DNA of 64,000 bases from an uncultured virus (IMG/VR IMGVR_UViG_3300025652_000051). Its lineage: Duplodnaviria > Heunggongvirae > Uroviricota > Caudoviricetes. The first letter of the stretch is position 1. Each line of letters starts with the position of its first letter. The position numbers and the translations under genes are program-made. Below the pieces are notes generated by a model, which searched no databases, was not told the DNA's origin, and saw only the letters and a program-made list of their open reading frames with translations. The DNA is taken from the IMG/VR virus record IMGVR_UViG_3300025652_000051; one strand, given 5' to 3'. Of the stretch, positions 4,825-46,145 are shown in pieces.

Positions 4825-6906
4825 ATGGTAGATAAGTATTTTGTAAACTGTAGAGGGGCAACTTTCAATAAAGTCCATACTGATGAGTGGGATAAGTCAG
4901 GAGGTCTTCCTAGGATGAGCACTCCTTTTCAACCAGTCACAGTTGATTACGATAAGGATTACATGACCTTTGCAGGGTCTACTAAAACTTCTAATTGGCT
5001 TCATTGGAATGATGACGAAGCTAACAGTCAACTAGATTATTTATCTAAAATAGGGGTAAATCTAATAAGGGTATACGCAGACCTGTTTACCTGGGATGCT
5101 TTAGGTAGTAGATATTTGCAATCGGTAGAGTCTCTAGCAAAACTATGCAACTCCAAAAAAATGTATATTCAATGGGTATTATTTGATGGATATACTCAAG
5201 ACGATACTCCTTCTACCAATCATTCATTAGGGTATCTAGATCCCTCTACTATCCCTGAGGCGATGTCTTGGGGAATTCGTAGATGGCAGAGGTGCCCTAC
5301 TATTAACGAGAATAGCATTAGCGGAACCAGAGATTACTTTAAGTTAGTGGAGGACATTCCTAGTAGATCAGGTTCCTCATTATCTCCTAAAGTAGAATCT
5401 TACATATCTGATATGTTGTCAACCGCTGGAAAGTACAGATCGGCATTGTCGTGGGAAGTAATGCACGATGTCAACATTCTTGATACTGAGACTAATGCAT
5501 ATTCTTTTTTAATTGCTGCCATAAACAAGGTGAATTCGTTAAAGACTGCAAATCAAAAAACTACAATTTCGTCAAAATACTTAAATGCGTATAGTACTAA
5601 GGGGTCTAATGGTACACCCGATGTATACGATAGCACCTTAATAGAGCAAGTAATTCCTTTACTTGACTACGCTTGCGAGCTAACAATTAATTTTACAATT
5701 TTAGGCTTTATAAATTCTTACAGGAGATTACTTGATTTTTCTTCTAAAACTAAAAAGCCTTTTATGCTGATAGATTCTTTTAATGAGTCTTTATTGACTC
5801 CTTCTGAATTCTTTACTTTTGCAAAAGATTTCAATGTTGGAGTTATTTGTGAAGGCATGGTTGATCGAGCCATGAGTAGAAAGCCTAACAATGATACGAA
5901 AGGTATTTTGTATGATGACGGGTCTTGCAGAAGAAGTGTTGACGCTAGTGCTGTAAAATCTAAGGCATCTAATGACGGCATAGGGTTCACTAAATTAAGT
6001 TTACCTTCCGAGAAAACTGATTTCAACAATCTGTATAGTAAAGTAGCTTCTAGCTTTGAGAGGTTTGAAGCTCATGGTGACTTTGGTTATTGGACCTTTT
6101 CTTCGATTCATGAGGCTCATGAGGGGTACCCTGAGTTTTCGGGAACGCCTATAGGTTATCTGCCCATGGCATCTTCAGTATCGTCTACCAAGAACGGATG
6201 GGGAGTCGTAGGAGATGGGTTAGGCTACGGTTATGAGAGTAATTATTTATTTTCAAGTCTTAAACTTTGGGACCAGTATGGGAACCAGAACTTCGCAAGC
6301 TGGAAACTATTCCAACATATATCCGATCCTGTAGAAAGGGATAAGCAGGGATCTAAAATGCTGGCAAAGCTTATAAGGCTAACCCAAGACTTGGACATGA
6401 CATTCGGACATAATTTTCACAATAGCGAAGGGTATTCTATACCAAGTTTAGTGTCTTTTGCTACTCAAAATAATGTGCAGACTTATGCTTCGGGGTATTT
6501 GCCAACGTCCCTTACTAAAACTAGTAAGTACAATAAGAGTCCTTTAGTGGGGAGTCCTAAACTTCTTTCAAACTTATCTCCTTCTGATGGAGGGTACAGG
6601 CAATCAGTTACCGAATTAGATAAACCTCTTTGTTATTGGAATAGGCCCTCGGGGGCAGAATTCGCCAGCGGATGCTGTGACTACAGTGCAGCTATTACTG
6701 TAGGGACCATGGATACGGAATATACTGATATCTTAAATACAAAAATTGATTGGTCCTCTTACGACACTGATTTCTTCTATTGGTCGGCATATTTGTATAA
6801 TGCTTACGTTGAAGCTAATAATAGCTTAAAAAGTTATCTAGAAGCATTAGGAGATCCTAGGGTATCGAGCTACTTAGTTACCCAAACCCCAGTGGTAATA
6901 AGCTAG
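4825..6906 (+). CDS. GH5-like (clan GH-A TIM barrel) protein, catalytic residues apparently degenerate
   Basis: RGATF...LDYLSKIGVNLIRVY...YIQWVLFD matches the GH5-type N-terminus; WEVMHD and KPFMLIDS stand where WxxxNEP and KPxxxxE are expected. Confidence 0.6.
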   Translation: MVDKYFVNCRGATFNKVHTDEWDKSGGLPRMSTPFQPVTVDYDKDYMTFAGSTKTSNWLHWNDDEANSQLDYLSKIGVNLIRVYADLFTWDALGSRYLQSVESLAKLCNSKKMYIQWVLFDGYTQDDTPSTNHSLGYLDPSTIPEAMSWGIRRWQRCPTINENSISGTRDYFKLVEDIPSRSGSSLSPKVESYISDMLSTAGKYRSALSWEVMHDVNILDTETNAYSFLIAAINKVNSLKTANQKTTISSKYLNAYSTKGSNGTPDVYDSTLIEQVIPLLDYACELTINFTILGFINSYRRLLDFSSKTKKPFMLIDSFNESLLTPSEFFTFAKDFNVGVICEGMVDRAMSRKPNNDTKGILYDDGSCRRSVDASAVKSKASNDGIGFTKLSLPSEKTDFNNLYSKVASSFERFEAHGDFGYWTFSSIHEAHEGYPEFSGTPIGYLPMASSVSSTKNGWGVVGDGLGYGYESNYLFSSLKLWDQYGNQNFASWKLFQHISDPVERDKQGSKMLAKLIRLTQDLDMTFGHNFHNSEGYSIPSLVSFATQNNVQTYASGYLPTSLTKTSKYNKSPLVGSPKLLSNLSPSDGGYRQSVTELDKPLCYWNRPSGAEFASGCCDYSAAITVGTMDTEYTDILNTKIDWSSYDTDFFYWSAYLYNAYVEANNSLKSYLEALGDPRVSSYLVTQTPVVIS

Positions 6907-9233
6907 TATACCCTTCCCCCTTTAGCAATATGATTATGTTTAATCATTGCTGCTGGCAATACTTCTTCCGCATTTAAAGACTCTTCATAGGTGTAATTGC
7001 TTAAGTAGTTTTCTAACTTATTAATTACGTCATCTGCTGAGGTTCCTACAATCACTAAATTTTGATAGACAGTCCATCCTTGAGGGACAAAAGGAGTACT
7101 GTTTATTCCTGCATATATACTTCCGTATTGCATACCCATGTACATCTTTTGGCCGTAAGGGTCGTTATCCCATAAACCTCTACTAAATTTAGTAGCCCTA
7201 GCATCCCCATTGTTTGCCGTGCCATCATCAGTTATGGTACCACTTACAGCATAATTAGTAATATCACTGATAATATCTGTAGGGTACATCCAATTACTTG
7301 CGACATTTGAAGGACTATTTCCTTTATTAGGAGACATTACGTAGTATTTTCCTACTGCTACAGAAGATAGATCTCCAGGAGCATCATCATTTCTTTCTTG
7401 TATTACCATAACCTTTCTACTTCCTAGCCAGTGCTCAGAAGGAGAAACTCCATATATAGATGTAGAGTCTGTATATCCTTCAAATTTAGAAGTAAACTTA
7501 ACATATCCGTCCGCACCGCTTGTTACTACTTGTGCAAGACTCATAAAGTTTCCAGAAGCATCTGCTCCTTGAGTATTATCTCCTTTGTAGTTGTAAATAA
7601 CTTTTAACGCTTGCCGAAACTGACTTGATGCCTGAAGAGGAGGGAAAGCACTAAAAGTTACTCCTAATTCAAGAGCTTCCTGCCCAGAGACGCTGGTTCC
7701 GTTTGAGAAAGTAATCTTATGAACAGGCAGTCCCGACAACTTTATTTTTCTTTTATTTTCAGGAGAATAAACATACATTTCATTCATTCTTCCGTCTATA
7801 GTTCCTCCTAAAAGGGAGTTATAAGTCCCCCCTGTTCCCGCAAAATCAGCTTGCGACTCATGCCAATACTTCATAGTATCAAATACTTTGTTTTTAATTT
7901 TATCTGATAGTTTTACATCATTAGATTTTAAATAAACATCTGAATTTCTGTAATTATCAATACTAAACTTGGAAGATAAGTATACCCCATATAACTCTCT
8001 GTGTACTCCTTCTACTCCATTATGATTCACATCTTTTTGGAGGTATAGTCTTTGACCTCCGTTAAATATTTGATTTGTATCCACTGCTCCTCTTTCTGTA
8101 GCATTAATTGGTGTATCTAAAAATCCTTTTCCTACACCCTTCGAATCCCAATAATCACTTACGGAACTATTGGAGTAAGTGAACGGATATAAATAATAGG
8201 GGAACGCAGTAGGATCCCCTGAAGTTGCACCACCTCCCTTCAGTTCTCCTCCGAAATCCACAGGATACATGCCAGCTTTTATACTTCCTGAGTCTCCATC
8301 AATATCTACTTTAGAGTAGCATCCTACGGCGTTTGACTGCTGAAAAAAACCATGTATCTTTTCTGGAGTAAATGACCTAGCTTGAGTAATGCCTTTAACT
8401 TGTCTATACATTAACTGGCCCATTGCTGATCCTGGAATAGGGTTGTAGTATGTTAGGGGAAGGGGAGGGTCAAAGTATAGATCCTTTAGAGCGTAATCCT
8501 CCTCACTAGTACCAGTTGAGATTGCGTAAGACGCAAGGAAATCATAAAAGGCTCTAAAGGAGTCTTGTACTTGATAATCGCCATAGGATTGCGCCCCGTA
8601 TCCGAAAAGTCCATCTGGTTGCGTAATGATTGCCCCATCGGCATTCTCACACTCTGCCGATGGTTTGCTTATCCAAACGTCAACCATCCGACCACTATTC
8701 TCATCTACCAATAAAGTGTTATTACCAATAGTGATTACGTTATCTCCCGCGTACTTAGACTGAGTTCCTTCTTTGTAGGGCTTATACCAGTCAAAATACC
8801 AAGATAAAACTCTGTCATAATCAAATCCCCACCTGTTAGTACCGTATCCGTGCCTAATAGCTTCTCCCCCAAATCCTTGGTCAGTGTCATTAAAGTCTAA
8901 AAGGGCTGAAACCTCATCAGAAGCTAGAGTTCCTGATCCGAAATATTTTACATCATCCCAAGCTGATGCTTGAAATCTTCCTGTTACAAAATGGTATTCG
9001 TCTTCAAAAAACGCTCTCCTAGTGTTATTAATGCTTAAACTAGAAGTATCTACTTTTGGACGTGATTGCAGATTAGTAAGTGATTTTTGATTTGTTCTAG
9101 TAAGTTGAGGTCCGTAATCGGCAGAAGCGTTAATAGACTCTCCGCCAAGTGGAAACTCTTCTGAGTTAATGTATCCGTAATTAGGAGTTCTTGGGACAAA
9201 ATCGTCGTGATGCTCTCTTGATATTCTAGCCAT
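6903..9233 (-). CDS. Large hypothetical protein, probably virion-associated
   Basis: Long ORF rich in G/S/Y/D; likely start MARISREHH at 9233 (ORF track starts at 9284); TAGATA late-type element upstream; stop overlaps the convergent gene's stop (CTAG 6903-6906). Confidence 0.65.
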   Translation of the reverse strand: MARISREHHDDFVPRTPNYGYINSEEFPLGGESINASADYGPQLTRTNQKSLTNLQSRPKVDTSSLSINNTRRAFFEDEYHFVTGRFQASAWDDVKYFGSGTLASDEVSALLDFNDTDQGFGGEAIRHGYGTNRWGFDYDRVLSWYFDWYKPYKEGTQSKYAGDNVITIGNNTLLVDENSGRMVDVWISKPSAECENADGAIITQPDGLFGYGAQSYGDYQVQDSFRAFYDFLASYAISTGTSEEDYALKDLYFDPPLPLTYYNPIPGSAMGQLMYRQVKGITQARSFTPEKIHGFFQQSNAVGCYSKVDIDGDSGSIKAGMYPVDFGGELKGGGATSGDPTAFPYYLYPFTYSNSSVSDYWDSKGVGKGFLDTPINATERGAVDTNQIFNGGQRLYLQKDVNHNGVEGVHRELYGVYLSSKFSIDNYRNSDVYLKSNDVKLSDKIKNKVFDTMKYWHESQADFAGTGGTYNSLLGGTIDGRMNEMYVYSPENKRKIKLSGLPVHKITFSNGTSVSGQEALELGVTFSAFPPLQASSQFRQALKVIYNYKGDNTQGADASGNFMSLAQVVTSGADGYVKFTSKFEGYTDSTSIYGVSPSEHWLGSRKVMVIQERNDDAPGDLSSVAVGKYYVMSPNKGNSPSNVASNWMYPTDIISDITNYAVSGTITDDGTANNGDARATKFSRGLWDNDPYGQKMYMGMQYGSIYAGINSTPFVPQGWTVYQNLVIVGTSADDVINKLENYLSNYTYEESLNAEEVLPAAMIKHNHIAKGGRVY

Positions 9234-9262
9234 GGTATATTGAGGTAATTTGTATACTGCCT

Positions 9263-9273
9263 CTAAATATCTA
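9263..9273. promoter_or_regulatory. Overlapping divergent late-promoter candidates (CTAAATA on +, TAGATA on -)
   Basis: ctaaatatcta between divergent genes starting at 9233(-) and 9303(+). Confidence 0.5.
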
Positions 9274-9302
9274 TACAGATACATTTTTCTGAATATTTTA
9301 AA

Positions 9303-37704: not shown

Positions 37705-40176
37705 ATGGATTTCTATAAAGAATTACTGGAGAGTTTCAGTCGAATTACAGGTCGAAGGCTTAGTTTACTGGAGCAAGAAGAAGACCCTAGAGTACCTAAA
37801 GCTTTAGATATTTTAAAGAATTCTCAATGGAATCCTGAAGGTCCTAAGGGACAAGTAGCTACAGTTAATGGCAAGCAAGCTCGATGGTATGCAGGCACTC
37901 AATCAAAATCATTAATAATTTCTAATGGAACTGGAGTATACGATCCAAAAAATAGTATTCTTGCTCCTTCTAAAGGAAACAACCAAAAATTTAAAGCATT
38001 ATTAACAGCTATTGTAGGTGAGGAAGAAGGTGTAACCAAATTTGAAACTAAAAGATCAAAGAGTCCTGGGGAATGGGCCATCGAAAGAATGACTCAGACA
38101 TTGAGTGGTCTTACGAAAGAAATTGCAAACTCAATACTTAAATCTTTTAAAACAGTGTCAGACAATTGTGTGAACAGGACATGGTTTGTGAAGTTAGCTA
38201 AGTCTGTCGGAATGACACCTCAAGGTGCTCTTAGCTGGTTTACAGGTGGAGGACAGCAATCTTTAGAATCTCGATTAACTAACCTATCTTTTAAACTCAT
38301 ATATAAAGATGGAAAACTTATAAAAGTAGACTCTAAGCCCGACGCAGAATTAAGATCTAAGATTGCAGATAAGTTAGCCAATTTAACAGAGTTGGCTAAC
38401 GGAAATAAAAAAACCACCAACGAAGGTTATTGTAAAAAACTTAGAAATGAATTTGCAATGACGGGTTCAGAGGGCAATAGATCTTTAATTGTAGCAGCAG
38501 ATAATAATGTTTTAGATAATGACTCTATTGTAGTGTCGGATCAAACGGGATTATATGAAGGGGTTCTTAAAAAAGCGTTTACTCAATGTAATAAAAGAGT
38601 TTCTCCTGATGAAGTTGATTTATACACGGACAAGGCGGGAGGAGCGAACGCAAACCGAGGATTTACCTTTGAAGAATTGCCTCAAGTTTTAAATCTTTTT
38701 AATCTCATTCAAGAAGCAAAAGCTAATGAAGACGAAGCAATGGTCGATTGTTTAGGTAATCAATTAACAAAACTGGTCACTGACATAAAAAGAAAAGTTG
38801 ATAAGCTGACCGAACAAACTGAAACATGGACTGAAAGTGAGAAGCAAACTGGCTTAGACCTTGAAGACGCTGCTACCGTTGCTATGGCTCAAGAATTAGT
38901 TACACAAGTAGGGTCTAAAGAAGGAAGCTTTACAACTAAATTAGTTAAATCAATGATTCCTTATGGAAAAGAAATAGCCAAGAGAGGGTCAGTCATGGCT
39001 TTACCAGCCGGTACAGACACGGGAGGGGGAAAGAGACAAGATGTTATAGAGGTATTCGACAACTGTGATGACGCAAAAGATGCAGCCAGTAAGCTTGGTG
39101 TTGATCCCGTACTAACCCCAATTTCAGATCTATCGGATGATCACCAAGAATCTTTAAAGTGCTTAAAAGGATCTGACAAGTTGAAAGGCTTGTCCGAGGA
39201 TTCTCCCGAAGAAGAAAAAACAGTGTGCATTATTAACACAAGTCTTAAAAATTATATTGGACTTTCTAAAGGGATTACTGCCGGGTCACAAACAGGAGGA
39301 TCTCAAGCTAGGACTGTTGAAATTGTAGATAAGATACTTAGGGGAGAAAAATTAACTGACGCGGAGAATGACATTGTAAACTCTGAAGAAGCATACAAAG
39401 ACTTCATAGGTTTAGATAAAAAATCTTACCGAGAAGCAGCAAAAATATTAAAAGAGGGATCTGATTTAAATGGATTCTTAATTAATAATGAAAAAGTTAG
39501 CGTTCAAGTAAACGGAGAACAAGTCACTTCTAACGTATTTGATACCGCCGGTAATATTGTAGTAGATTCTCTAATTGATGCGGTAGGGTATCTCCCTGAG
39601 TCACCAGAAGCAAACAATTTAAGGCAGATTATTGAAGAGTATAAAGGCGACCCTCCAGACAAGATAAAGAGAAAGGTTGCACTATACGTTGAAAAGCAAT
39701 CGTTAATGTCTAAAATAAATAGTGGAGATCAAAATGCAGTTAATGCTCTTAAATTAAAAATGATGAGAGTAGGTGGGGATAGCACCAGGGATTTAGGATT
39801 AGAAATTAGAGATATTAAGAACAATGAAATATTTGGATTTAAGCATAATCAACCGTTAGAAGATGCGTTTGCGAATCTAGGGAAACCTGGGTCTAAGTGG
39901 AAGATAAACGAAGGTAAACCGGGTTCAACTACCATAACTTTAGAGGACGATAACGGTAACACAATCTCCCTGGAAGCAGTAGTATCTAGAAAGTCTAACG
40001 GAACGTATTCAAATAGCTACTCAGTACACTACGGAAAGAAAACAATAAGTAACTACAACAAGTACTCTAACAATTCTAAAAGCCCTAAGGAAGAGTCTAC
40101 GGTTATTAAAGCCTTAAGTTTAATAGAAAGTATTTTAGTATCTTTAAAAAAGAAAGTAGCTATTAGCGATGCTTAG
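37705..40176 (+). CDS. 823-aa hypothetical protein; possible head-packaged PD-(D/E)xK-type nuclease
   Basis: N-terminal LLES/LLEQ processing-like motifs; RGFTFEE...RQD...SLK pattern; Lys/Glu-rich. Confidence 0.45.
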   Translation: MDFYKELLESFSRITGRRLSLLEQEEDPRVPKALDILKNSQWNPEGPKGQVATVNGKQARWYAGTQSKSLIISNGTGVYDPKNSILAPSKGNNQKFKALLTAIVGEEEGVTKFETKRSKSPGEWAIERMTQTLSGLTKEIANSILKSFKTVSDNCVNRTWFVKLAKSVGMTPQGALSWFTGGGQQSLESRLTNLSFKLIYKDGKLIKVDSKPDAELRSKIADKLANLTELANGNKKTTNEGYCKKLRNEFAMTGSEGNRSLIVAADNNVLDNDSIVVSDQTGLYEGVLKKAFTQCNKRVSPDEVDLYTDKAGGANANRGFTFEELPQVLNLFNLIQEAKANEDEAMVDCLGNQLTKLVTDIKRKVDKLTEQTETWTESEKQTGLDLEDAATVAMAQELVTQVGSKEGSFTTKLVKSMIPYGKEIAKRGSVMALPAGTDTGGGKRQDVIEVFDNCDDAKDAASKLGVDPVLTPISDLSDDHQESLKCLKGSDKLKGLSEDSPEEEKTVCIINTSLKNYIGLSKGITAGSQTGGSQARTVEIVDKILRGEKLTDAENDIVNSEEAYKDFIGLDKKSYREAAKILKEGSDLNGFLINNEKVSVQVNGEQVTSNVFDTAGNIVVDSLIDAVGYLPESPEANNLRQIIEEYKGDPPDKIKRKVALYVEKQSLMSKINSGDQNAVNALKLKMMRVGGDSTRDLGLEIRDIKNNEIFGFKHNQPLEDAFANLGKPGSKWKINEGKPGSTTITLEDDNGNTISLEAVVSRKSNGTYSNSYSVHYGKKTISNYNKYSNNSKSPKEESTVIKALSLIESILVSLKKKVAISDA

Positions 40177-40656
40177 TAGATCTGCTAACTTAAACATCTC
40201 TACTTGAACGTCATTAAATACCCCAGAAACCTTAGATCCCCTTACTGGAAGGTTTAATTCATTAGTAATAGCCATTGGATCTCTACGATCCTGACCAATA
40301 ATTAAAATAAACTTTCTAGAAGATTTTTTAGAATCTCTGTGAGCTTGTCCTATCATATTAAATATTTGAGATTTAGGATTAAGTAGATCACTTACTCTTT
40401 CGTCATTGTATCCTTTCTTTATTTCAATGACGTATTTAAACTTCTCGGGAGTTATAAGGTCTCCATATATTTTTAAATATGAAGGTAAGTTATGAGTAGT
40501 AGCGAATGCTCCAGAACCAGGGCTTCTACAGAATTCATTAGTTTCAAATCTTTCATTAAGCATCTTGGCTATTTTATTCTCGAATCTATTTCCTTTCGCT
40601 CTAGAGTTAAGTTTCTTCTTCCTTGTTAAAGGACTAATGTCAAAATCATCTTTCAT
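40144..40656 (-). CDS. Holliday junction resolvase (Hjc-like PD-(D/E)xK)
   Basis: NSRAKGNRFENKIAKML...RSPGSGA...GDLI...IEIKKG. Confidence 0.8.
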   Translation of the reverse strand: MKDDFDISPLTRKKKLNSRAKGNRFENKIAKMLNERFETNEFCRSPGSGAFATTHNLPSYLKIYGDLITPEKFKYVIEIKKGYNDERVSDLLNPKSQIFNMIGQAHRDSKKSSRKFILIIGQDRRDPMAITNELNLPVRGSKVSGVFNDVQVEMFKLADLLSIANSYFLF

Positions 40657-40671
40657 ATTTTAGTTCCATGA

Positions 40672-40680
40672 CTATAATAG
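40672..40680. promoter_or_regulatory. Quasi-palindromic -10 element CTATAATAG between divergent genes
   Basis: TATAAT on + lies 6 nt before ATG 40685; TATTAT on - precedes the resolvase gene. Confidence 0.6.
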
Positions 40681-40684
40681 GCTC

Positions 40685-40996
40685 ATGGATAAAGTATCGT
40701 TTAAGTTGAAGGATGCTAAAGTTAAATTAACCGAAAGGAGTAGAGGTCGTATGAAGATTCAGATTAAGTTAAGTAAGGAAGAAGCGGAAGGCTTTAAGAA
40801 CTTCTGCAAGCTCAAGCCACCAGAGTTAGGTGATGAGGATTTTTATAAGCAGGTTTTCTTTGCCGGGTGTAATACAATGACAGAGCAGATTAGGACTCTC
40901 GTGGAGCAACACCAGCAATCTAAGGCAGAGGGATCACCCGAAGCTGTAACCGAAGAGCCACAAGTAGAAGTCGCAGATGAGCAAAGTAAAGAATAA
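40685..40996 (+). CDS. Small hypothetical protein, possible ribbon-helix-helix DNA binder
   Basis: MKIQIKLSKEEAEGFKNFC strand-helix pattern. Confidence 0.45.
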   Translation: MDKVSFKLKDAKVKLTERSRGRMKIQIKLSKEEAEGFKNFCKLKPPELGDEDFYKQVFFAGCNTMTEQIRTLVEQHQQSKAEGSPEAVTEEPQVEVADEQSKE

Positions 40997-41348
40997 TTTC
41001 AGTGTTGTTAACCTTAAGACTTCTAAGCAATTAGAGTCTACTGTGGTTAGCAATATAGAAGATAGGAATTACGCATATTATCTCATTGTAAATAAGTGGG
41101 ATGACGTGTGTAACTACTTTAATGATCAATTGCCTTCTGACGGTACTACGGATTTAAATGTCATTGACATTTTTGATGTTCGTAATCCTTTGGGAGTAAT
41201 TAGGTCTGCGATTAAATCTCACAGAGAAACCATTTCCACTGCGTGCTTGCAGTCTTATGATCAGCTACCAATGATGGTTGTTATTCATAAGTCATTTCCG
41301 CGAGTGGTAACTTACAATGGTTCTATCGGCGCGGAACTAGGCATGTAG
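40977..41348 (+). CDS. Thioredoxin-like fold protein with degenerate active site
   Basis: YLIVNKWDDVC in place of WCxxC; later QLPMMVVI cis-Pro-like motif. Confidence 0.45.
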   Translation: MSKVKNNFSVVNLKTSKQLESTVVSNIEDRNYAYYLIVNKWDDVCNYFNDQLPSDGTTDLNVIDIFDVRNPLGVIRSAIKSHRETISTACLQSYDQLPMMVVIHKSFPRVVTYNGSIGAELGM

Positions 41349-41677
41349 TTCCCGGCCTTAAATCTTTTATAAGCCTCCATCTTCTCATTATACTTCTTAT
41401 TCTTAGTGTAAATGAGTCGGAGGTTATTAAGGATGACGGTAGTAAAGTAATTGAAGGCTTGACCAGATTCTCTCTTGAAATTGTTCAATACCTTTATTAT
41501 AAGTAAGAAGCATTCTTGTTTTGCTTCTTCATGATCGACGTTAAATCTAAAAGATAACATTAGTCGATCAATAAGAACATCGAACATGTTGAATAATTCA
41601 TTCTCATGTTCTTTGTTACCTGATTTGAATTCTTGTATTAGGTCTTCAAATTTTTTATTGTCAATATAATTAGCCAC
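41312..41677 (-). CDS. Late-transcription sigma factor, gp55-like, minimal length
   Basis: NYIDNKKF...EAKQECFLLIIKVLNNFKRESGQAFNYFTTVILN matches the gp55 sigma-2 pattern; GTG start at 41677. Confidence 0.8.
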   Translation of the reverse strand: MANYIDNKKFEDLIQEFKSGNKEHENELFNMFDVLIDRLMLSFRFNVDHEEAKQECFLLIIKVLNNFKRESGQAFNYFTTVILNNLRLIYTKNKKYNEKMEAYKRFKAGNYMPSSAPIEPL

Positions 41678-41681
41678 CAAT

Positions 41682-41690
41682 CTATCATAG
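41682..41690. promoter_or_regulatory. Bidirectional -10 element CTATCATAG
   Basis: TATCAT(+) and TATGAT(-) each lie 6 nt from a start codon (ATG 41695, GTG 41677). Confidence 0.7.
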
Positions 41691-41694
41691 TCCT

Positions 41695-42729
41695 ATGAGC
41701 GATCTCAGTTTTCGAGGAGCCAACCCTAAGTGCGGCGAATGCCCTGCTTTAAAGCTTCCATTGCCTAAGCATACTATCTTAGATTACGAGTTTGAATCCA
41801 CTTGTGATATTCTGTTCTTATCAGATTCCCCTAAGTTGTTCGAAGGGGAGTATGCTGCGTTTCGTCCTAATGAGTATAGGATTATTAAGAACGAACTAGA
41901 GCGTATGGGTTTAGGTGAATGGAAGGTGGGGTTCTCAACTGCTGTTAAGTGCCCTCAATTCACTGCTGATAACCTGTCATCTGCCGTTAGGAAAGCTTGT
42001 AAGGTCCACCTTCATGATACTCTTGATCACATGAAGCCTTCTTTAGTTTTTGCTTGTGGTAGCGTAGCTACTAACATGCTCTATGGTAGGAACAAAGAGT
42101 CTGGAAAGGTTAGAGGTAAGACGGATGTTATGGAGACCGAGAACGGACATGAGTTTAAGGTTGTTCCTATTATTCATCCTTTCCAAGTTGTAGCGGAGCC
42201 TAAGAATGCTTTTCTTTTCAGGGGCGATATCAAAGCCGCTATTGAAAATGACTTGTTAGACATGTCTATAGAGTCTCATGCTCCATACACAATGTGTTTG
42301 AGTATTGAAGAGTTGGATAAGGTTAAGGACGAGTTTACTAGCACCTCCTTGGATGTAGCGGTAGACATTGAGACTACAGGTCTTGATTTTAACAATGATT
42401 CCATCCACACTGTATCAATGACCTTGGTAGATAGAGAGACAGGGGACTTAGGTAGGACCTTGGTGGTACCCGTTGATCACAAGGAGGCTAAACTAGGTTA
42501 CAAAACTAAGGGAAGATTCATGTCTTTCATCTGTGAAGTAATGCGTAATAAGAACAATCGTAAAGTCCTTCAAAATTGTGGCTTTGACCTTAAGTTCCTA
42601 AAGCGTTATGGTGTAGAGGATGTGTATAATGTCTTCGATACAAAGATCCTTCAGCATTTTCTTAACGAGAACATTCCTAAGAGTCTCGCAGATCTTGCTA
42701 AATACTACTTCCCTAATGAGAAGTTCTAA
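41695..42729 (+). CDS. DNA polymerase A part 1: UDG family-4-like domain plus 3'-5' exonuclease ExoI/ExoII
   Basis: CGEC...AVKC...AC...HPF (UDG-4 like); VAVDIETTGL, QNCGFDLKFL, FDTKI. Confidence 0.85.
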   Translation: MSDLSFRGANPKCGECPALKLPLPKHTILDYEFESTCDILFLSDSPKLFEGEYAAFRPNEYRIIKNELERMGLGEWKVGFSTAVKCPQFTADNLSSAVRKACKVHLHDTLDHMKPSLVFACGSVATNMLYGRNKESGKVRGKTDVMETENGHEFKVVPIIHPFQVVAEPKNAFLFRGDIKAAIENDLLDMSIESHAPYTMCLSIEELDKVKDEFTSTSLDVAVDIETTGLDFNNDSIHTVSMTLVDRETGDLGRTLVVPVDHKEAKLGYKTKGRFMSFICEVMRNKNNRKVLQNCGFDLKFLKRYGVEDVYNVFDTKILQHFLNENIPKSLADLAKYYFPNEKF

Positions 42730-43259
42730 TGCTATCAGTTAAAAACGCAAACACTTTTGATTTCAAGAATATCCCACTAATAGATTGCTGTGAGGGTAAC
42801 GCTAAAGACACTAACATTACTGCCCGTGTGTATGCTAAACTTCTACAGGAGGTTAAGGAGAAGGGTCTAGAAAAGTTTTATGAAAAACTAATATCCCCTT
42901 TGGCTATCGCGTTCCGAGACATGGAGTATGAAGGTCTACTTATTGACAAGGATAAGTTGGACCAGTTAGATGAGGAGCTACTACTTAAGATTAAAGAAGC
43001 TGAACATCACTTGAAGGAGGCTGCTGGCTTGGAGGATGTTGTTAATCTTAATTCCACTCAGCAATTGATTAATGTGATCTACTCATTTACAAAGGATACT
43101 AAAGGCAACTGGAATCAGACAGAGGACTTTGGCTTAGGTTTGTATCCTTTTGAGTTTACTAAGAAGGGTGCTCCCTCTACAAACGAGGAGACTCTGAACA
43201 AGGTTAAGAACATGGTAGAAGAAGAGTTCGTCTCTAGAGGATTGATTAATGAGAAGTAA
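42729..43259 (+). CDS. DNA polymerase A part 2: ExoIII and thumb
   Basis: GNAKDT, DMEYEGLLID, NLNSTQQL, TKKGAPSTNEETL. Confidence 0.85.
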   Translation: MLSVKNANTFDFKNIPLIDCCEGNAKDTNITARVYAKLLQEVKEKGLEKFYEKLISPLAIAFRDMEYEGLLIDKDKLDQLDEELLLKIKEAEHHLKEAAGLEDVVNLNSTQQLINVIYSFTKDTKGNWNQTEDFGLGLYPFEFTKKGAPSTNEETLNKVKNMVEEEFVSRGLINEK

Positions 43260-44313
43260 TGGTGAAGTAGCGATTGCTAAATCCGTATTGGCAAATATGT
43301 CGGATGCTCAAGTGAAAGCTGCCAAGAGATTCTTTGATCGCTTCTCTGAGTATAAGAAGTACACAAAGCTGCATTCTACTTATATTGAGGGAGTGAGAAA
43401 TGCTCTTAAAAATACTGGAGATAGAATATATTGTAAGTACGATTTAGGAGGGACAGTGACGGGTCGCATCTCTAACTCAGGTGCAAGTATTGGTAGGAAG
43501 AAGACTGATAAGATCGGTGTTAGTTTTCACACGCTACCTAGAGAGGCGTTGGATGTTAACATTAGAGATTACGTAGTAGCTCCTAAGGGGCATGATTTCA
43601 TTACTGTGGACTATGCAGGTATGGAGCTACGAGTTTTGGCTCACATAGCTAATGAACGCAACATGATCAAGGCTTTCGAGTCTGGAGCAGACCTTCATAG
43701 TTATTCCGCTGGCCTCACGTTTAGCAAAGATCCTTCTGAAGTAACTAAGGAACAACGTCAGATTGCCAAGGCAGTATCATTCCTTACTGTATACGGTGGA
43801 ACAGGATATACTCTTGCTTCTAAGCATAACATGCCAGAGGATAGAGCCAACGAGATCATTGAATCGTGGATGAGAGCATTCCCTGGTGTTCGCAGGTATA
43901 TGGATACCGTTGATGATTACATTAAGCAGTTTGGGTACGCTAAGACTTTGTTTGGTAGATACAGACATCTTCCAAACTACAAGTCACCCTTCAAGAACAT
44001 TCGTAGGGAATCATTTAGGCAGGGATTGAACTTCACTATTCAATCTCCTGCTAGTGATATTCTTCTGTGCGGAATGCTAGGTGTGGTTAACAAGCTTAAG
44101 GGAATGAAGGGTAAAGTAATTGCTACCGTTCACGACTCTATTGAACTTATCTGCCCAAAGGAGGAGACGAAGGAGGTTGTTAGGATAGTGACAGATGAGC
44201 TTGTCAATTATCACTACATGAAGAATAACTTTGGGATCAACCTCAGAGTCCCTTTAGCAGTGGACGTTGAGGTTGGATCTAGTTTTGGGAATGGCGTAGC
44301 TTATAAAGTCTAG
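43249..44313 (+). CDS. polA: DNA polymerase A part 3: palm and fingers
   Basis: KLHSTY, TVTGRIS, motif A DYAGMELRVLAH, motif B RQIAKAVSFLTVYG, motif C TVHDS. Confidence 0.93.
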   Translation: MRSNGEVAIAKSVLANMSDAQVKAAKRFFDRFSEYKKYTKLHSTYIEGVRNALKNTGDRIYCKYDLGGTVTGRISNSGASIGRKKTDKIGVSFHTLPREALDVNIRDYVVAPKGHDFITVDYAGMELRVLAHIANERNMIKAFESGADLHSYSAGLTFSKDPSEVTKEQRQIAKAVSFLTVYGGTGYTLASKHNMPEDRANEIIESWMRAFPGVRRYMDTVDDYIKQFGYAKTLFGRYRHLPNYKSPFKNIRRESFRQGLNFTIQSPASDILLCGMLGVVNKLKGMKGKVIATVHDSIELICPKEETKEVVRIVTDELVNYHYMKNNFGINLRVPLAVDVEVGSSFGNGVAYKV

Positions 44314-44314
44314 G

Positions 44315-45304
44315 TTAGCTAATTGTAGAACTATCCAAATCGGAACCTGTACCAGATCTCCTAACTTTTTTAGAGGAAAGTGCTTTCGACTGTTTATTAG
44401 CTGCCTTTTTTACTTTATCTTTGAATGCCTTTTCCTTATCTGGATGCCCTCCAATCCCCATTTTCTCAGGGTTATCTGGAGCATTACGCGCCGTATCTGT
44501 CTCAGCCTTTTCGGTATCTATGGCTCGCTGTCTTACTAGATCCGCGCCTCTGCCTCTTTTATGAATATTTTCGGCATCACTTCTTCCTATCGTATTACGA
44601 CGTTGCCTAGTTCCACTTTCACCTCGTTCTTGAGCACTTGCTATAGATGCATCGCCTTGTGCTCTAGCAGCCTGATCTACTGCCGCTTGATTTCGCATCT
44701 TCGGCTCGCCCGGATTTTCTTTACTATGCTTCTTTTGGAGTGCTCTTGCAGCATCTTTCATGCCTTTTTGAAACGCTTCTAAAACCTTTTCACCCAAATA
44801 ATCTCTAGCTTCTGCTACCTTCTTCTTCTTGCTGCTACCCTTAGGTTGACAGGACCCCTTAGAGTAAGCTTTCTTTCCTGGGGTAGGCTCGTAACCGCTC
44901 CAGCATCTTTCAGCAAGTTCGATTCTAGCATTCTCTAATTTAATTTGTCTTTCACTCATAGTAGGCATTCCTTCTTTATTTATATCAGTCGAGCAGTTCC
45001 ACTTCTTCAAAGATAGGCTAAGACGATCTTTGCCTGTATTGTTACTGTCTTTTTGTCGCTTTCTCATGCCACCCATACGCGCACAAAATGACTTACGACG
45101 TTTAGCATCCTTACTACCTTTCTTAAGCTTTGATGGCTTAGTAGTTACAGCAGTTTTAATTTCAGATCCAGGGTTAGCGGCTCTGATACGCTTGGCACCC
45201 TGCTCGGTTGTACCTCCAGTTTTGGATTTATCTCCACTTTTAACTGAAAATTTCTTAGGCATTTTGGTTTTTTCTAGTATAGGTTCTTCTGTTTTATTAT
45301 TCAT
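44315..45304 (-). CDS. Basic modular protein, probable late/internal head protein
   Basis: KRRKSFCARMGG...SLKKWNC and RCWSGYEPTPGKKAYSKGSC modules common in T4-like phages; GTAAATA upstream on -. Confidence 0.65.
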   Translation of the reverse strand: MNNKTEEPILEKTKMPKKFSVKSGDKSKTGGTTEQGAKRIRAANPGSEIKTAVTTKPSKLKKGSKDAKRRKSFCARMGGMRKRQKDSNNTGKDRLSLSLKKWNCSTDINKEGMPTMSERQIKLENARIELAERCWSGYEPTPGKKAYSKGSCQPKGSSKKKKVAEARDYLGEKVLEAFQKGMKDAARALQKKHSKENPGEPKMRNQAAVDQAARAQGDASIASAQERGESGTRQRRNTIGRSDAENIHKRGRGADLVRQRAIDTEKAETDTARNAPDNPEKMGIGGHPDKEKAFKDKVKKAANKQSKALSSKKVRRSGTGSDLDSSTIS

Positions 45305-45335
45305 AATCGTTGACCTTAGTCTATTATTCTATAGG

Positions 45336-45342
45336 TATTTAC
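45336..45342 (-). promoter_or_regulatory. Late promoter candidate GTAAATA
   Basis: Reverse complement of tatttac, about 30 nt upstream of ATG 45304(-). Confidence 0.55.
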
Positions 45343-45359
45343 TATACAATCCCGCTTAT

Positions 45360-46145
45360 ATGATTGATAAAATAGACTTTCTAAAAGACACTAAAAGTTC
45401 CGTATCGCTCATCGACAAGATGAAGCATGACCATGCCCTTAAAGTAACAAATGCTGCTAGGGTGTCTTACGATAATGAGAAGGAGGAGTTTACGGAAAAG
45501 GATAAGAAGCTTACTAAATTCCTCTGGGGACATGAGCATACTTCTCCTTTTCGGCATTCCTACTATACCTTTCAGATTAAGCTACCTCTTATTATAGCTA
45601 GGCAATTGATGAAGTATCAGGTAGGGTCCACTTTCAGAACTACGGAATTAAATGGGGAAGAGATAACCATCCAAGAGTTTGATCATATTTACGATGTTGA
45701 TAAGGGTTGCTCTTGGAACGAGGTATCAGGAAGATACACCACTACTTCGGAAGATTTTTATACACCTTCTAAGTTAAGGTCAAATCCTGGTCATGGAAAC
45801 AAGCAATCTTCTGGTGAGTATATTAACCCTATGGATAAGTACTCCATGGGGTATATGTATGATGGTGAAATCCAAGAACACATGCAGGATCAGTGTAAGA
45901 GGGCCATTTATCTTTACAAAAGATTAATTGACAACGGTGTAGCAAAAGAAATGGCTAGGGGAATTCTTCCTCAATACATGTATACCAAAGCTACTTGGAC
46001 GATCAGTCTTCAAAGTGTAATATGGTTTCTTCACCAGCGACTTAAGTCTGATGCTCAGTGGGAGATCCAGCAGTTAGCGGAAGGTATTTATGAGTTGGTG
46101 AAGGACGATCTTGGTAAGTTAGGATTGTCTAAGGAAGATCTATGA
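45360..46145 (+). CDS. thyX: Flavin-dependent thymidylate synthase
   Basis: NAARVSY, HEHTSPF, WNEVSGRY, EMARGILP, AQWEIQ; true start MIDKID at 45360. Confidence 0.93.
   Translation: MIDKIDFLKDTKSSVSLIDKMKHDHALKVTNAARVSYDNEKEEFTEKDKKLTKFLWGHEHTSPFRHSYYTFQIKLPLIIARQLMKYQVGSTFRTTELNGEEITIQEFDHIYDVDKGCSWNEVSGRYTTTSEDFYTPSKLRSNPGHGNKQSSGEYINPMDKYSMGYMYDGEIQEHMQDQCKRAIYLYKRLIDNGVAKEMARGILPQYMYTKATWTISLQSVIWFLHQRLKSDAQWEIQQLAEGIYELVKDDLGKLGLSKEDL

Follow-up and report, generated by a model that had tools for sequence, protein, structure and literature searches.

A probable UDG-PolA-type DNA polymerase encoded by three adjacent genes of an uncultured marine phage group

Can a phage replicative DNA polymerase be divided among three genes, with breaks that fall inside its domains rather than between them? 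This question is raised by the virus record IMG/VR IMGVR_UViG_3300025652_000051 (Caudoviricetes), of which a stretch of 64,000 nucleotides (nt) was analysed, referred to here as the window. Three adjacent genes on its + strand, designated A, B and C, together resemble a family A DNA polymerase (PolA) of the type in which a uracil-DNA glycosylase (UDG)-like domain precedes a 3'-5' exonuclease domain and a polymerase domain. We consider it likely that they encode a genuine replicative polymerase of this UDG-PolA type, with three products that associate non-covalently. The evidence comes from the domain content of the three proteins, from the recurrence of both breaks at the same positions in related loci and from the selection acting on each piece.

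Gene order and domain content of A, B and C

The original prediction described three overlapping open reading frames (ORFs) with a TAATG overlap at 42729 and an 11-bp overlap at 43249-43259, and this layout was found both in the ORF list and in the DNA:

41695..42729, + strand: gene A, 344 amino acids (aa); N-terminal family-4-UDG-like domain and the ExoI/ExoII part of the 3'-5' exonuclease domain (ORF, Pfam, alignment of 24 sequences)
42726..42730, + strand: junction 1, TAATG; the last A of the gene A stop codon is the first base of the gene B ATG
42729..43259, + strand: gene B, 176 aa; ExoIII helix, exonuclease-to-polymerase linker helices and first half of the thumb (ORF, Klenow alignment, model)
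43249..43259, + strand: junction 2, an 11-nt overlap of the gene B end and gene C start; gene C ATG at 43249, gene B TAA at 43257-43259
43249..44313, + strand: gene C, 354 aa; second thumb helix, palm and fingers, preceded by a short N-terminal helix (Pfam, alignment to Bst, Taq and Klenow polymerases, model)

Both overlaps are short and join genes that lie in different frames. The order along the strand is colinear with that of one PolA, with the UDG-like domain and ExoI/ExoII on A, ExoIII and half of the thumb on B, and thumb helix 2, palm and fingers on C. The three proteins also match a single PHROG family, phrog_17 (annotated "DNA polymerase"), in colinear fashion at profile positions 547-785, 800-922 and 930-1236, respectively.

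Gene C shows the features of a family A polymerase most directly. Its Pfam match to DNA_pol_A (PF00476) extends over positions 59-380 of a 381-position profile (E 1.3e-73), and motifs A, B and C, with both catalytic aspartates, are present:

43609..43626, + strand: motif A (D121...E126), invariant in 25/25 sequences and aligned to the Bst motif
43756..43797, + strand: motif B (R170, K174, F178, Y182, G183), invariant columns, aligned to Bst, Taq and Klenow polymerases
44131..44139, + strand: motif C, H295-D296-S297; H295 and D296 invariant, HDS in place of HDE

The motif B residue at the position of Klenow 762 is Phe. The departure from HDE in motif C is shared with unsplit enzymes, since the variants HDS, HDA or HDC were found in 8 of the 10 nearest unsplit UDG-PolAs, and Ser follows HD in 4 of the 10. 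In the predicted model the N-terminal part of the gene C protein forms helices at residues 3-15 and 19-55.

The gene A protein has Pfam matches to UDG (PF03167; aa 61-171, E 2.2e-07) and to DNA_pol_A_exo1 (PF01612; aa 204-339, E 1.4e-13), the latter covering only positions 7-128 of a profile of 173. Three sets of conserved residues mark these two domains:

41731..42000, + strand: cysteines C13, C16, C86 and C102 of the UDG-like domain, all four invariant columns in the gene A alignment
42364..42372, + strand: ExoI, D224-I-E226; D224 and E226 invariant in 24/24 sequences
42583..42588, + strand: ExoII, F297-D298, invariant in 24/24 sequences

The cysteines have what we take to be the spacing of the 4Fe-4S ligands of family-4 UDGs. 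The His-Pro of UDG motif B is kept (H161, P162), and the GE(A/G)PG of UDG catalytic motif A is absent, SDSPK being aligned opposite the G-E-A-P-G of PDB entry 4zbx. In the exonuclease part, D224, E226 and D298 provide the ExoI DxE and ExoII carboxylates of a PolA DEDD exonuclease.

Gene B was recognized mainly by alignment, its Pfam match to DNA_pol_A being weak and below the cut-off (aa 75-161, profile 2-70). Residues 5-157 align to residues 156-292 of the Klenow chain, that is, Pol I 479-615 (the chain of 605 residues corresponds to Pol I 324-928), and the ExoIII region aligns without gaps. Two features of this short protein are central to what follows:

42795..42821, + strand: ExoIII region, G23-N24-A25-x-D27-x3-T31; G23, N24, A25, D27 and T31 invariant in 24/24 sequences
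43185..43235, + strand: C-terminal helix of gene B, aa 153-169, belonging to the additional residues around break 2 (DSSP on the predicted model)

In the ExoIII region D27 pairs with Klenow D501 and G23 with Klenow Y497. The Asp of the YxxxD motif is therefore kept, its Tyr position is occupied by an invariant Gly, and the motif stands on a different chain from ExoI and ExoII. The four carboxylates of the exonuclease site (D224, E226 and D298 of A; D27 of B) are invariant and divided between two chains.

Both breaks thus lie within domains. Break 1 falls inside the exonuclease domain, before Klenow 479, and separates ExoI/ExoII on A from ExoIII on B. Break 2 falls in a region of Klenow and Bst polymerases that we take to be the thumb; here B ends opposite Klenow 615 and C resumes at Klenow 629 (C residue 34, chain position 306). 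The 13 Klenow residues 616-628 correspond to residues 158-176 of B together with 1-33 of C, amounting to about 39 extra residues, and the extra sequence is predicted to be helical on both sides (B 153-169, C 3-15). Extra helical residues flanking break 2 had been noted from the sequence alone, and the predicted models agree. The accompanying division into UDG plus ExoI/ExoII, ExoIII, and intact motifs A, B and C in colinear order also stands, with the correction that break 2 cuts the thumb and not the border between thumb and palm. Czernecki et al. 2023 (PMC10201439) describe the thumb tip as an insertion site in T7 and phiKMV-like enzymes.

From this arrangement a working model of the enzyme can be proposed. 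In it, chain A would contribute the UDG-like domain together with the half of the proofreading site that holds ExoI and ExoII. The ExoIII helix, the connection to the polymerase domain and the first thumb half would come from chain B, and chain C would add the remaining thumb helix, the palm, the fingers and the catalytic motifs. To rebuild one enzyme, the three products would have to associate non-covalently.

Recurrence of the breaks and routes to a single chain

Consecutive ORFs of this kind could also result from indels introduced by sequencing or assembly, or from a defective virus that carries a pseudogene, and split ORFs are often errors; this prior is the only point in favor of such an origin here. 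A gene C profile search of IMG/VR gave 80 loci, with 224 of 232 candidate stretches confirmed by tblastn. A and B are separate ORFs, with the same breakpoint and a stop between them, in all 76 loci that contain both genes, and B and C are separate with the same breakpoint in all 78 that contain both; in the other loci a contig end truncates the region. This architecture is shared by independent metagenome contigs from many samples, which puts the split far beyond chance. Among these loci, identity to the window drops to 29-40% for A and B and to 47-56% for C, and the piece termini are conserved, with M1-L2 of gene B invariant in the 24-sequence alignment.

Purifying selection acts on all three pieces. 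The ratio of nonsynonymous to synonymous substitution rates (dN/dS) for A, B and C was 0.050, 0.042 and 0.027 in the pair L023-L024; 0.060, 0.065 and 0.063 in L008-L019; and 0.122, 0.038 and 0.035 in L051-L052 (Nei-Gojobori method, unsaturated pairs only, dS being saturated in most other pairs). With identical breakpoints throughout and selection on each piece, the earlier suggestion that the split is not an error holds, and we regard artefact or decay as extremely improbable.

In a large protein collection, the best 120 gene C homologues of near-equal length have 293-374 aa and 58-100% identity, and the best homologues of at least 621 aa reach only 32-38% identity. A gene B profile searched against 1.84 billion representatives detected 87 clusters at E<1e-30, and in nearly all of these the protein stands alone, is 157-181 aa long and begins at profile position 1. 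Among phages, blastn of the region against GenBank gave no match, tblastn of gene B gave no match, and tblastn of gene C gave identities of at most 34%, so there is no close cultured or deposited relative. The nearest record available, G001, is a fragment of 45 kb that does not include the polymerase region. One gene C homologue with 79% identity (P0014) carries the NCBI label Candidatus Poseidoniales archaeon MAG (metagenome-assembled genome); the bacterial-type replication genes in the window point to a viral contig that was binned with the archaeon and not to a gene of archaeal origin. The top longer match, P0121 (626 aa), was considered as a fused relative and rejected, as it holds two partial copies of a bacterial-type PolA polymerase domain and is probably an assembly chimera.

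Three real genes could still yield one full-length active chain if ribosomes shifted frame at one or both overlaps. With short overlaps in different frames, a -1 shift (junction 1) or a +1 shift (junction 2) is conceivable in principle, but no slippery heptamer was seen by eye in the junction sequence of the window, and the junctions vary among relatives. The overlap at junction 1 is 1 nt in 59 of 76 loci (a literal TAATG was confirmed in 46 of the 76), that at junction 2 ranges from 1 to 44 nt in 76 of 78 loci when the first start codon is taken, and gene C starts with ATG, GTG or TTG. In addition, ten loci have an insert of 274-634 nt between A and B, one relative has a B/C gap of 585 nt, and A lies 0.4-2.4 kb from a fused B-C gene in the sister clade described below. 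With unrelated genes between A and B in those ten loci, no frameshift fusion product is possible there, and a fused product in the window itself appears quite improbable. Translational coupling, which had been proposed from the overlaps, fits the window, and we infer it for this genome; as 0.3-2.4 kb of other genes lie between the pieces in relatives, coupling is not required throughout the group.

The inserts themselves are diverse. Conserved ORFs on the opposite strand lie between A and B in six loci (L062, L063, L064, L080, L070 and L075), the last of which belongs to a near-complete relative. The inserts of L058 and L072 contain a 91-aa ORF that looks hydrophobic by eye and may encode a membrane protein. 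In L074 both junctions are occupied, by a 2OG-Fe(II) oxygenase gene at A/B (L074:2259-2816) and a DUF6445 gene at B/C (L074:3345-3971). The insert at junction 1 of L037 is an HNH endonuclease gene (HNH_3, PF13392, E 4.9e-10; L037:2853-3470), and the end of A and the start of B coincide with those of the insert-free loci, with no intein or intron signature. Lying exactly at junction 1, this gene is possibly a trace of how the polymerase gene was cut.

An endonuclease gene at a break also invites the view that splicing restores one chain, through a group I or group II intron or through split inteins in a "fractured gene". SPO1-type UDG-PolA genes hold an intron with an HNH gene, as would fit the HNH gene of L037. 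Marine metagenomes have yielded fractured genes that carry split inteins (PMC2677866). The window, however, has no intervening sequence, its ORFs overlap, and Rfam detected no intron family in positions 40000-46000 of the window or in the loci of 10 relatives, 9 of which have inserts between the pieces. Likewise, no extensions of ~100 aa or ~35 aa that could be intein halves were found, L037 included, and the termini of the pieces are colinear with contiguous Klenow sequence and with the unsplit relatives. These results uphold the initial statement that neither an intron nor an intein interrupts the genes, and leave splicing with a negligible probability.

Proofreading site, order of the fissions and genome context

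Whether the divided exonuclease still proofreads is a separate question from whether the split is real. The tyrosine of ExoIII is replaced by Gly in 24/24 three-part sequences and in 8/8 forms in which B and C are fused, and is kept in 10/10 nearest unsplit UDG-PolAs. One interpretation accepts the three genes as real and takes proofreading to be vestigial or lost, with A and the N-terminus of B serving only as a structural scaffold and polymerization alone surviving. Besides the consistent Tyr-to-Gly change in all forms with break 1, the UDG-like domain without a GE(A/G)PG-type motif would fit such a scaffold. So would the statement of Czernecki et al. 2023 (PMC10201439) that even an inactive exonuclease domain is structurally necessary in PolAs. 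Against loss of proofreading, the four metal-binding carboxylates are invariant across sequences down to 30-40% identity, and A and C have similarly low dN/dS. Mutation of the ExoIII tyrosine in Klenow lowers exonuclease activity and does not abolish it, a partial effect that also argues against loss. Taken together, we judge vestigial proofreading unlikely and the proofreading site, judging from its residues, to be probably remodelled and still functional. The initial proposal of a heterotrimer whose proofreading site is assembled from two chains is thus the best reading, with the qualification that the ExoIII Tyr has become Gly.

Several points weigh against a three-chain, proofreading replicative polymerase. 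Given the Tyr-to-Gly change, proofreading may be altered or weakened. Assembly of A, B and C into a heterotrimer, as well as its polymerase and exonuclease activities, is predicted from the sequences. The single-chain model of gene B (mean predicted local distance difference test score, pLDDT, 81.8) had no significant match in the PDB by Foldseek (best E 0.17); its top rows were all PolA large fragments, at root-mean-square deviations above 9 A. Residues 59-105 of the gene C model have low confidence. A second polymerase may lie outside the window in this genome itself, and the tree on which the history of the breaks is based came from a quick search under LG+G4, with long branches flagged.

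Relatives bear on the possibility of a second polymerase. Each of five long relatives has exactly one match to PolA palm and fingers, and none of the five has a PolB match; two of them have an estimated completeness of at least 99% (131 kb and 111 kb). Within the window, a scan of 54 ORFs detected no second polymerase.

The history of the two breaks was approached through relatives that lack one or both. Besides stand-alone B proteins, the gene B profile search detected fused B-C proteins of 480-563 aa, which share the ML(T/S) N-terminus and extend through the polymerase part, and single-chain relatives of 755-835 aa at E around 1e-15. The 10 nearest unsplit matches all have UDG and DNA_pol_A in one chain, and 9 of them have an exonuclease Pfam match. 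A profile of the fused B-C forms gave 80 further IMG/VR loci, comprising 60 with A and a fused B-C, 6 with an ORF of ~505 aa in which the B part was undetected by tblastn, 5 without A in the available stretch, 5 in three parts and 4 truncated. The distance from A to B-C in this sister clade is usually 0.4-2.4 kb. In 29 gaps examined, a glutamine-synthetase-like gene (PF00120/PF03951) lies between A and B-C in 16 (L083-L157); other genes there are ThyX (5), a PD-(D/E)XK nuclease (4), a saccharopine-dehydrogenase-like gene (2) and small unknown ORFs.

A maximum-likelihood tree of the C region, with 103 rows after thinning at 93% identity, set 93 forms with break 1 apart from 10 unsplit forms (Shimodaira-Hasegawa-like approximate likelihood ratio test, SH-aLRT, 100). 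Grouped together were 42 three-part rows (support 88), with the fused P0308 as their sister (support 95). The pair L136/L139, also in three parts, fell within the two-part clade; the thumb of the L136 group is interrupted at the same position, with about 20 residues more than in its fused neighbors. Forcing all three-part rows together costs 79.7 log-likelihood units (approximately unbiased (AU) test, p-AU 0.033), a group named after the tree had been seen; L138, labelled "split" on account of a contig end, was left out of the test. One common origin for the break between B and C is thus weakly rejected, and the position of the L136 group together with the shared cut suggests that the thumb break arose twice or was transferred.

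Two successive fissions from a single-chain UDG-exonuclease-polymerase ancestor are therefore probable, because the sister clade has break 1 only and the nearest unsplit relatives are single chains of 755-835 aa; their order is deduced from these same forms. The first fission would have occurred inside the exonuclease domain and be common to a large marine phage group, and the second, at the enlarged thumb tip, would have occurred in a subclade, possibly twice. This marine phage group is large and apparently abundant.

A more speculative proposal, to which we give only limited credence, is that the fissions were adaptive rather than neutral. The split exonuclease site, the loss of the tyrosine and the cut at an enlarged two-helix thumb tip might place the joining of A, B and C under regulation, or the new helical pair at the thumb tip might dock another replisome protein, and two independent cuts may have fallen at this one thumb site. 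If so, the supply of subunits could tune proofreading or processivity.

Among its scanned ORFs the window contains a structural module of myovirus type (baseplate wedge, sheath, tube and major head protein) and a replication module with a RusA-like resolvase, ThyX, SbcCD-like proteins, ribonucleotide reductase, a DnaB-like helicase and a single-stranded DNA-binding protein. Very large + strand ORFs surround the baseplate genes at 2201-25711 (873, 693, 1323, 1173, 856 and 851 aa), without PHROG matches at E<=1e-5, and a 793-aa ORF on the opposite strand lies within this run at 6903-9284. Immediately upstream of gene A is a 122-aa ORF on the - strand (41312-41680) without a PHROG match. It diverges from gene A with 14 nt between the two starts, so any shared promoter region must be very short. 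Downstream, a Lys/Arg-rich ORF of 329 aa on the - strand (44315-45304) converges with gene C; over its first ~100 residues it resembles the C-termini of eight PHROGs of unknown function (e.g. phrog_727, E 5e-19).

Comparison with known split and unsplit polymerases

No report of a three-gene PolA with breaks inside domains was found in the passages searched, which included passages of PMC6302109 and PMC11348598.

The nearest architectural counterparts are the single-chain UDG-PolAs of N4-like cluster 17 and SPO1-like phages (PMC10201439), which have the same order of family-4-UDG-like domain, 3'-5' exonuclease and PolA. The nearest unsplit UDG-PolAs also share HDS-type variants of motif C with the window. 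In contrast to the window, they are single polypeptides and keep the ExoIII tyrosine.

The nearest counterpart among divided enzymes is the two-gene split between exonuclease and polymerase in T7-like cyanophages, reported in a 2023 reclassification as the first of its kind among PolAs (Czernecki et al. 2023, PMC10201439; also PMC12695635). This S-SBP1/S-TIP37-type enzyme resembles that of the window in being a phage family A polymerase placed in more than one gene by fission, not by frameshifting, and in having exonuclease and polymerase functions on different chains. It differs in that the window has three genes, with breaks between ExoII and ExoIII and inside the thumb instead of a single break at the exonuclease/polymerase border. 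Moreover, the window polymerase is of the UDG-PolA type and its genome has tail-sheath and baseplate genes. A two-piece DNA polymerase has also been described for the OM43 phage MEP401 type (PMC10580990); there the pieces number two and the phages are podovirus relatives of Zobellviridae.

Outside family A, gp43 (PolB) of T4-like Aeromonas phages is split, and nrdA of phage Aeh1 is split by a homing-endonuclease gene (PMC2677866). These cases share with the window an essential phage replication enzyme encoded in separate genes whose products reassemble (for the window, would reassemble), and endonuclease genes occur at the break in some genomes. They concern other enzyme families and two pieces, whereas the window has three pieces and empty junctions. 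That endonuclease invasion caused the fissions in the window group is offered only as a hypothesis.

Several uses follow from the comparison. Unsplit, two-piece and three-piece forms make up a nested natural series, which provides material to study how a polymerase tolerates breaks inside its domains, natural split points for engineering and a way to ask if an enzyme can do without the ExoIII tyrosine. Caution is advised in virome surveys with PolA as the marker, as piece C alone resembles an exonuclease-less polymerase and pieces A and B are easily left unannotated. In sum, family A polymerases are textbook single-chain enzymes, and the group represented by the window would build its proofreading site and its thumb each from two polypeptides.

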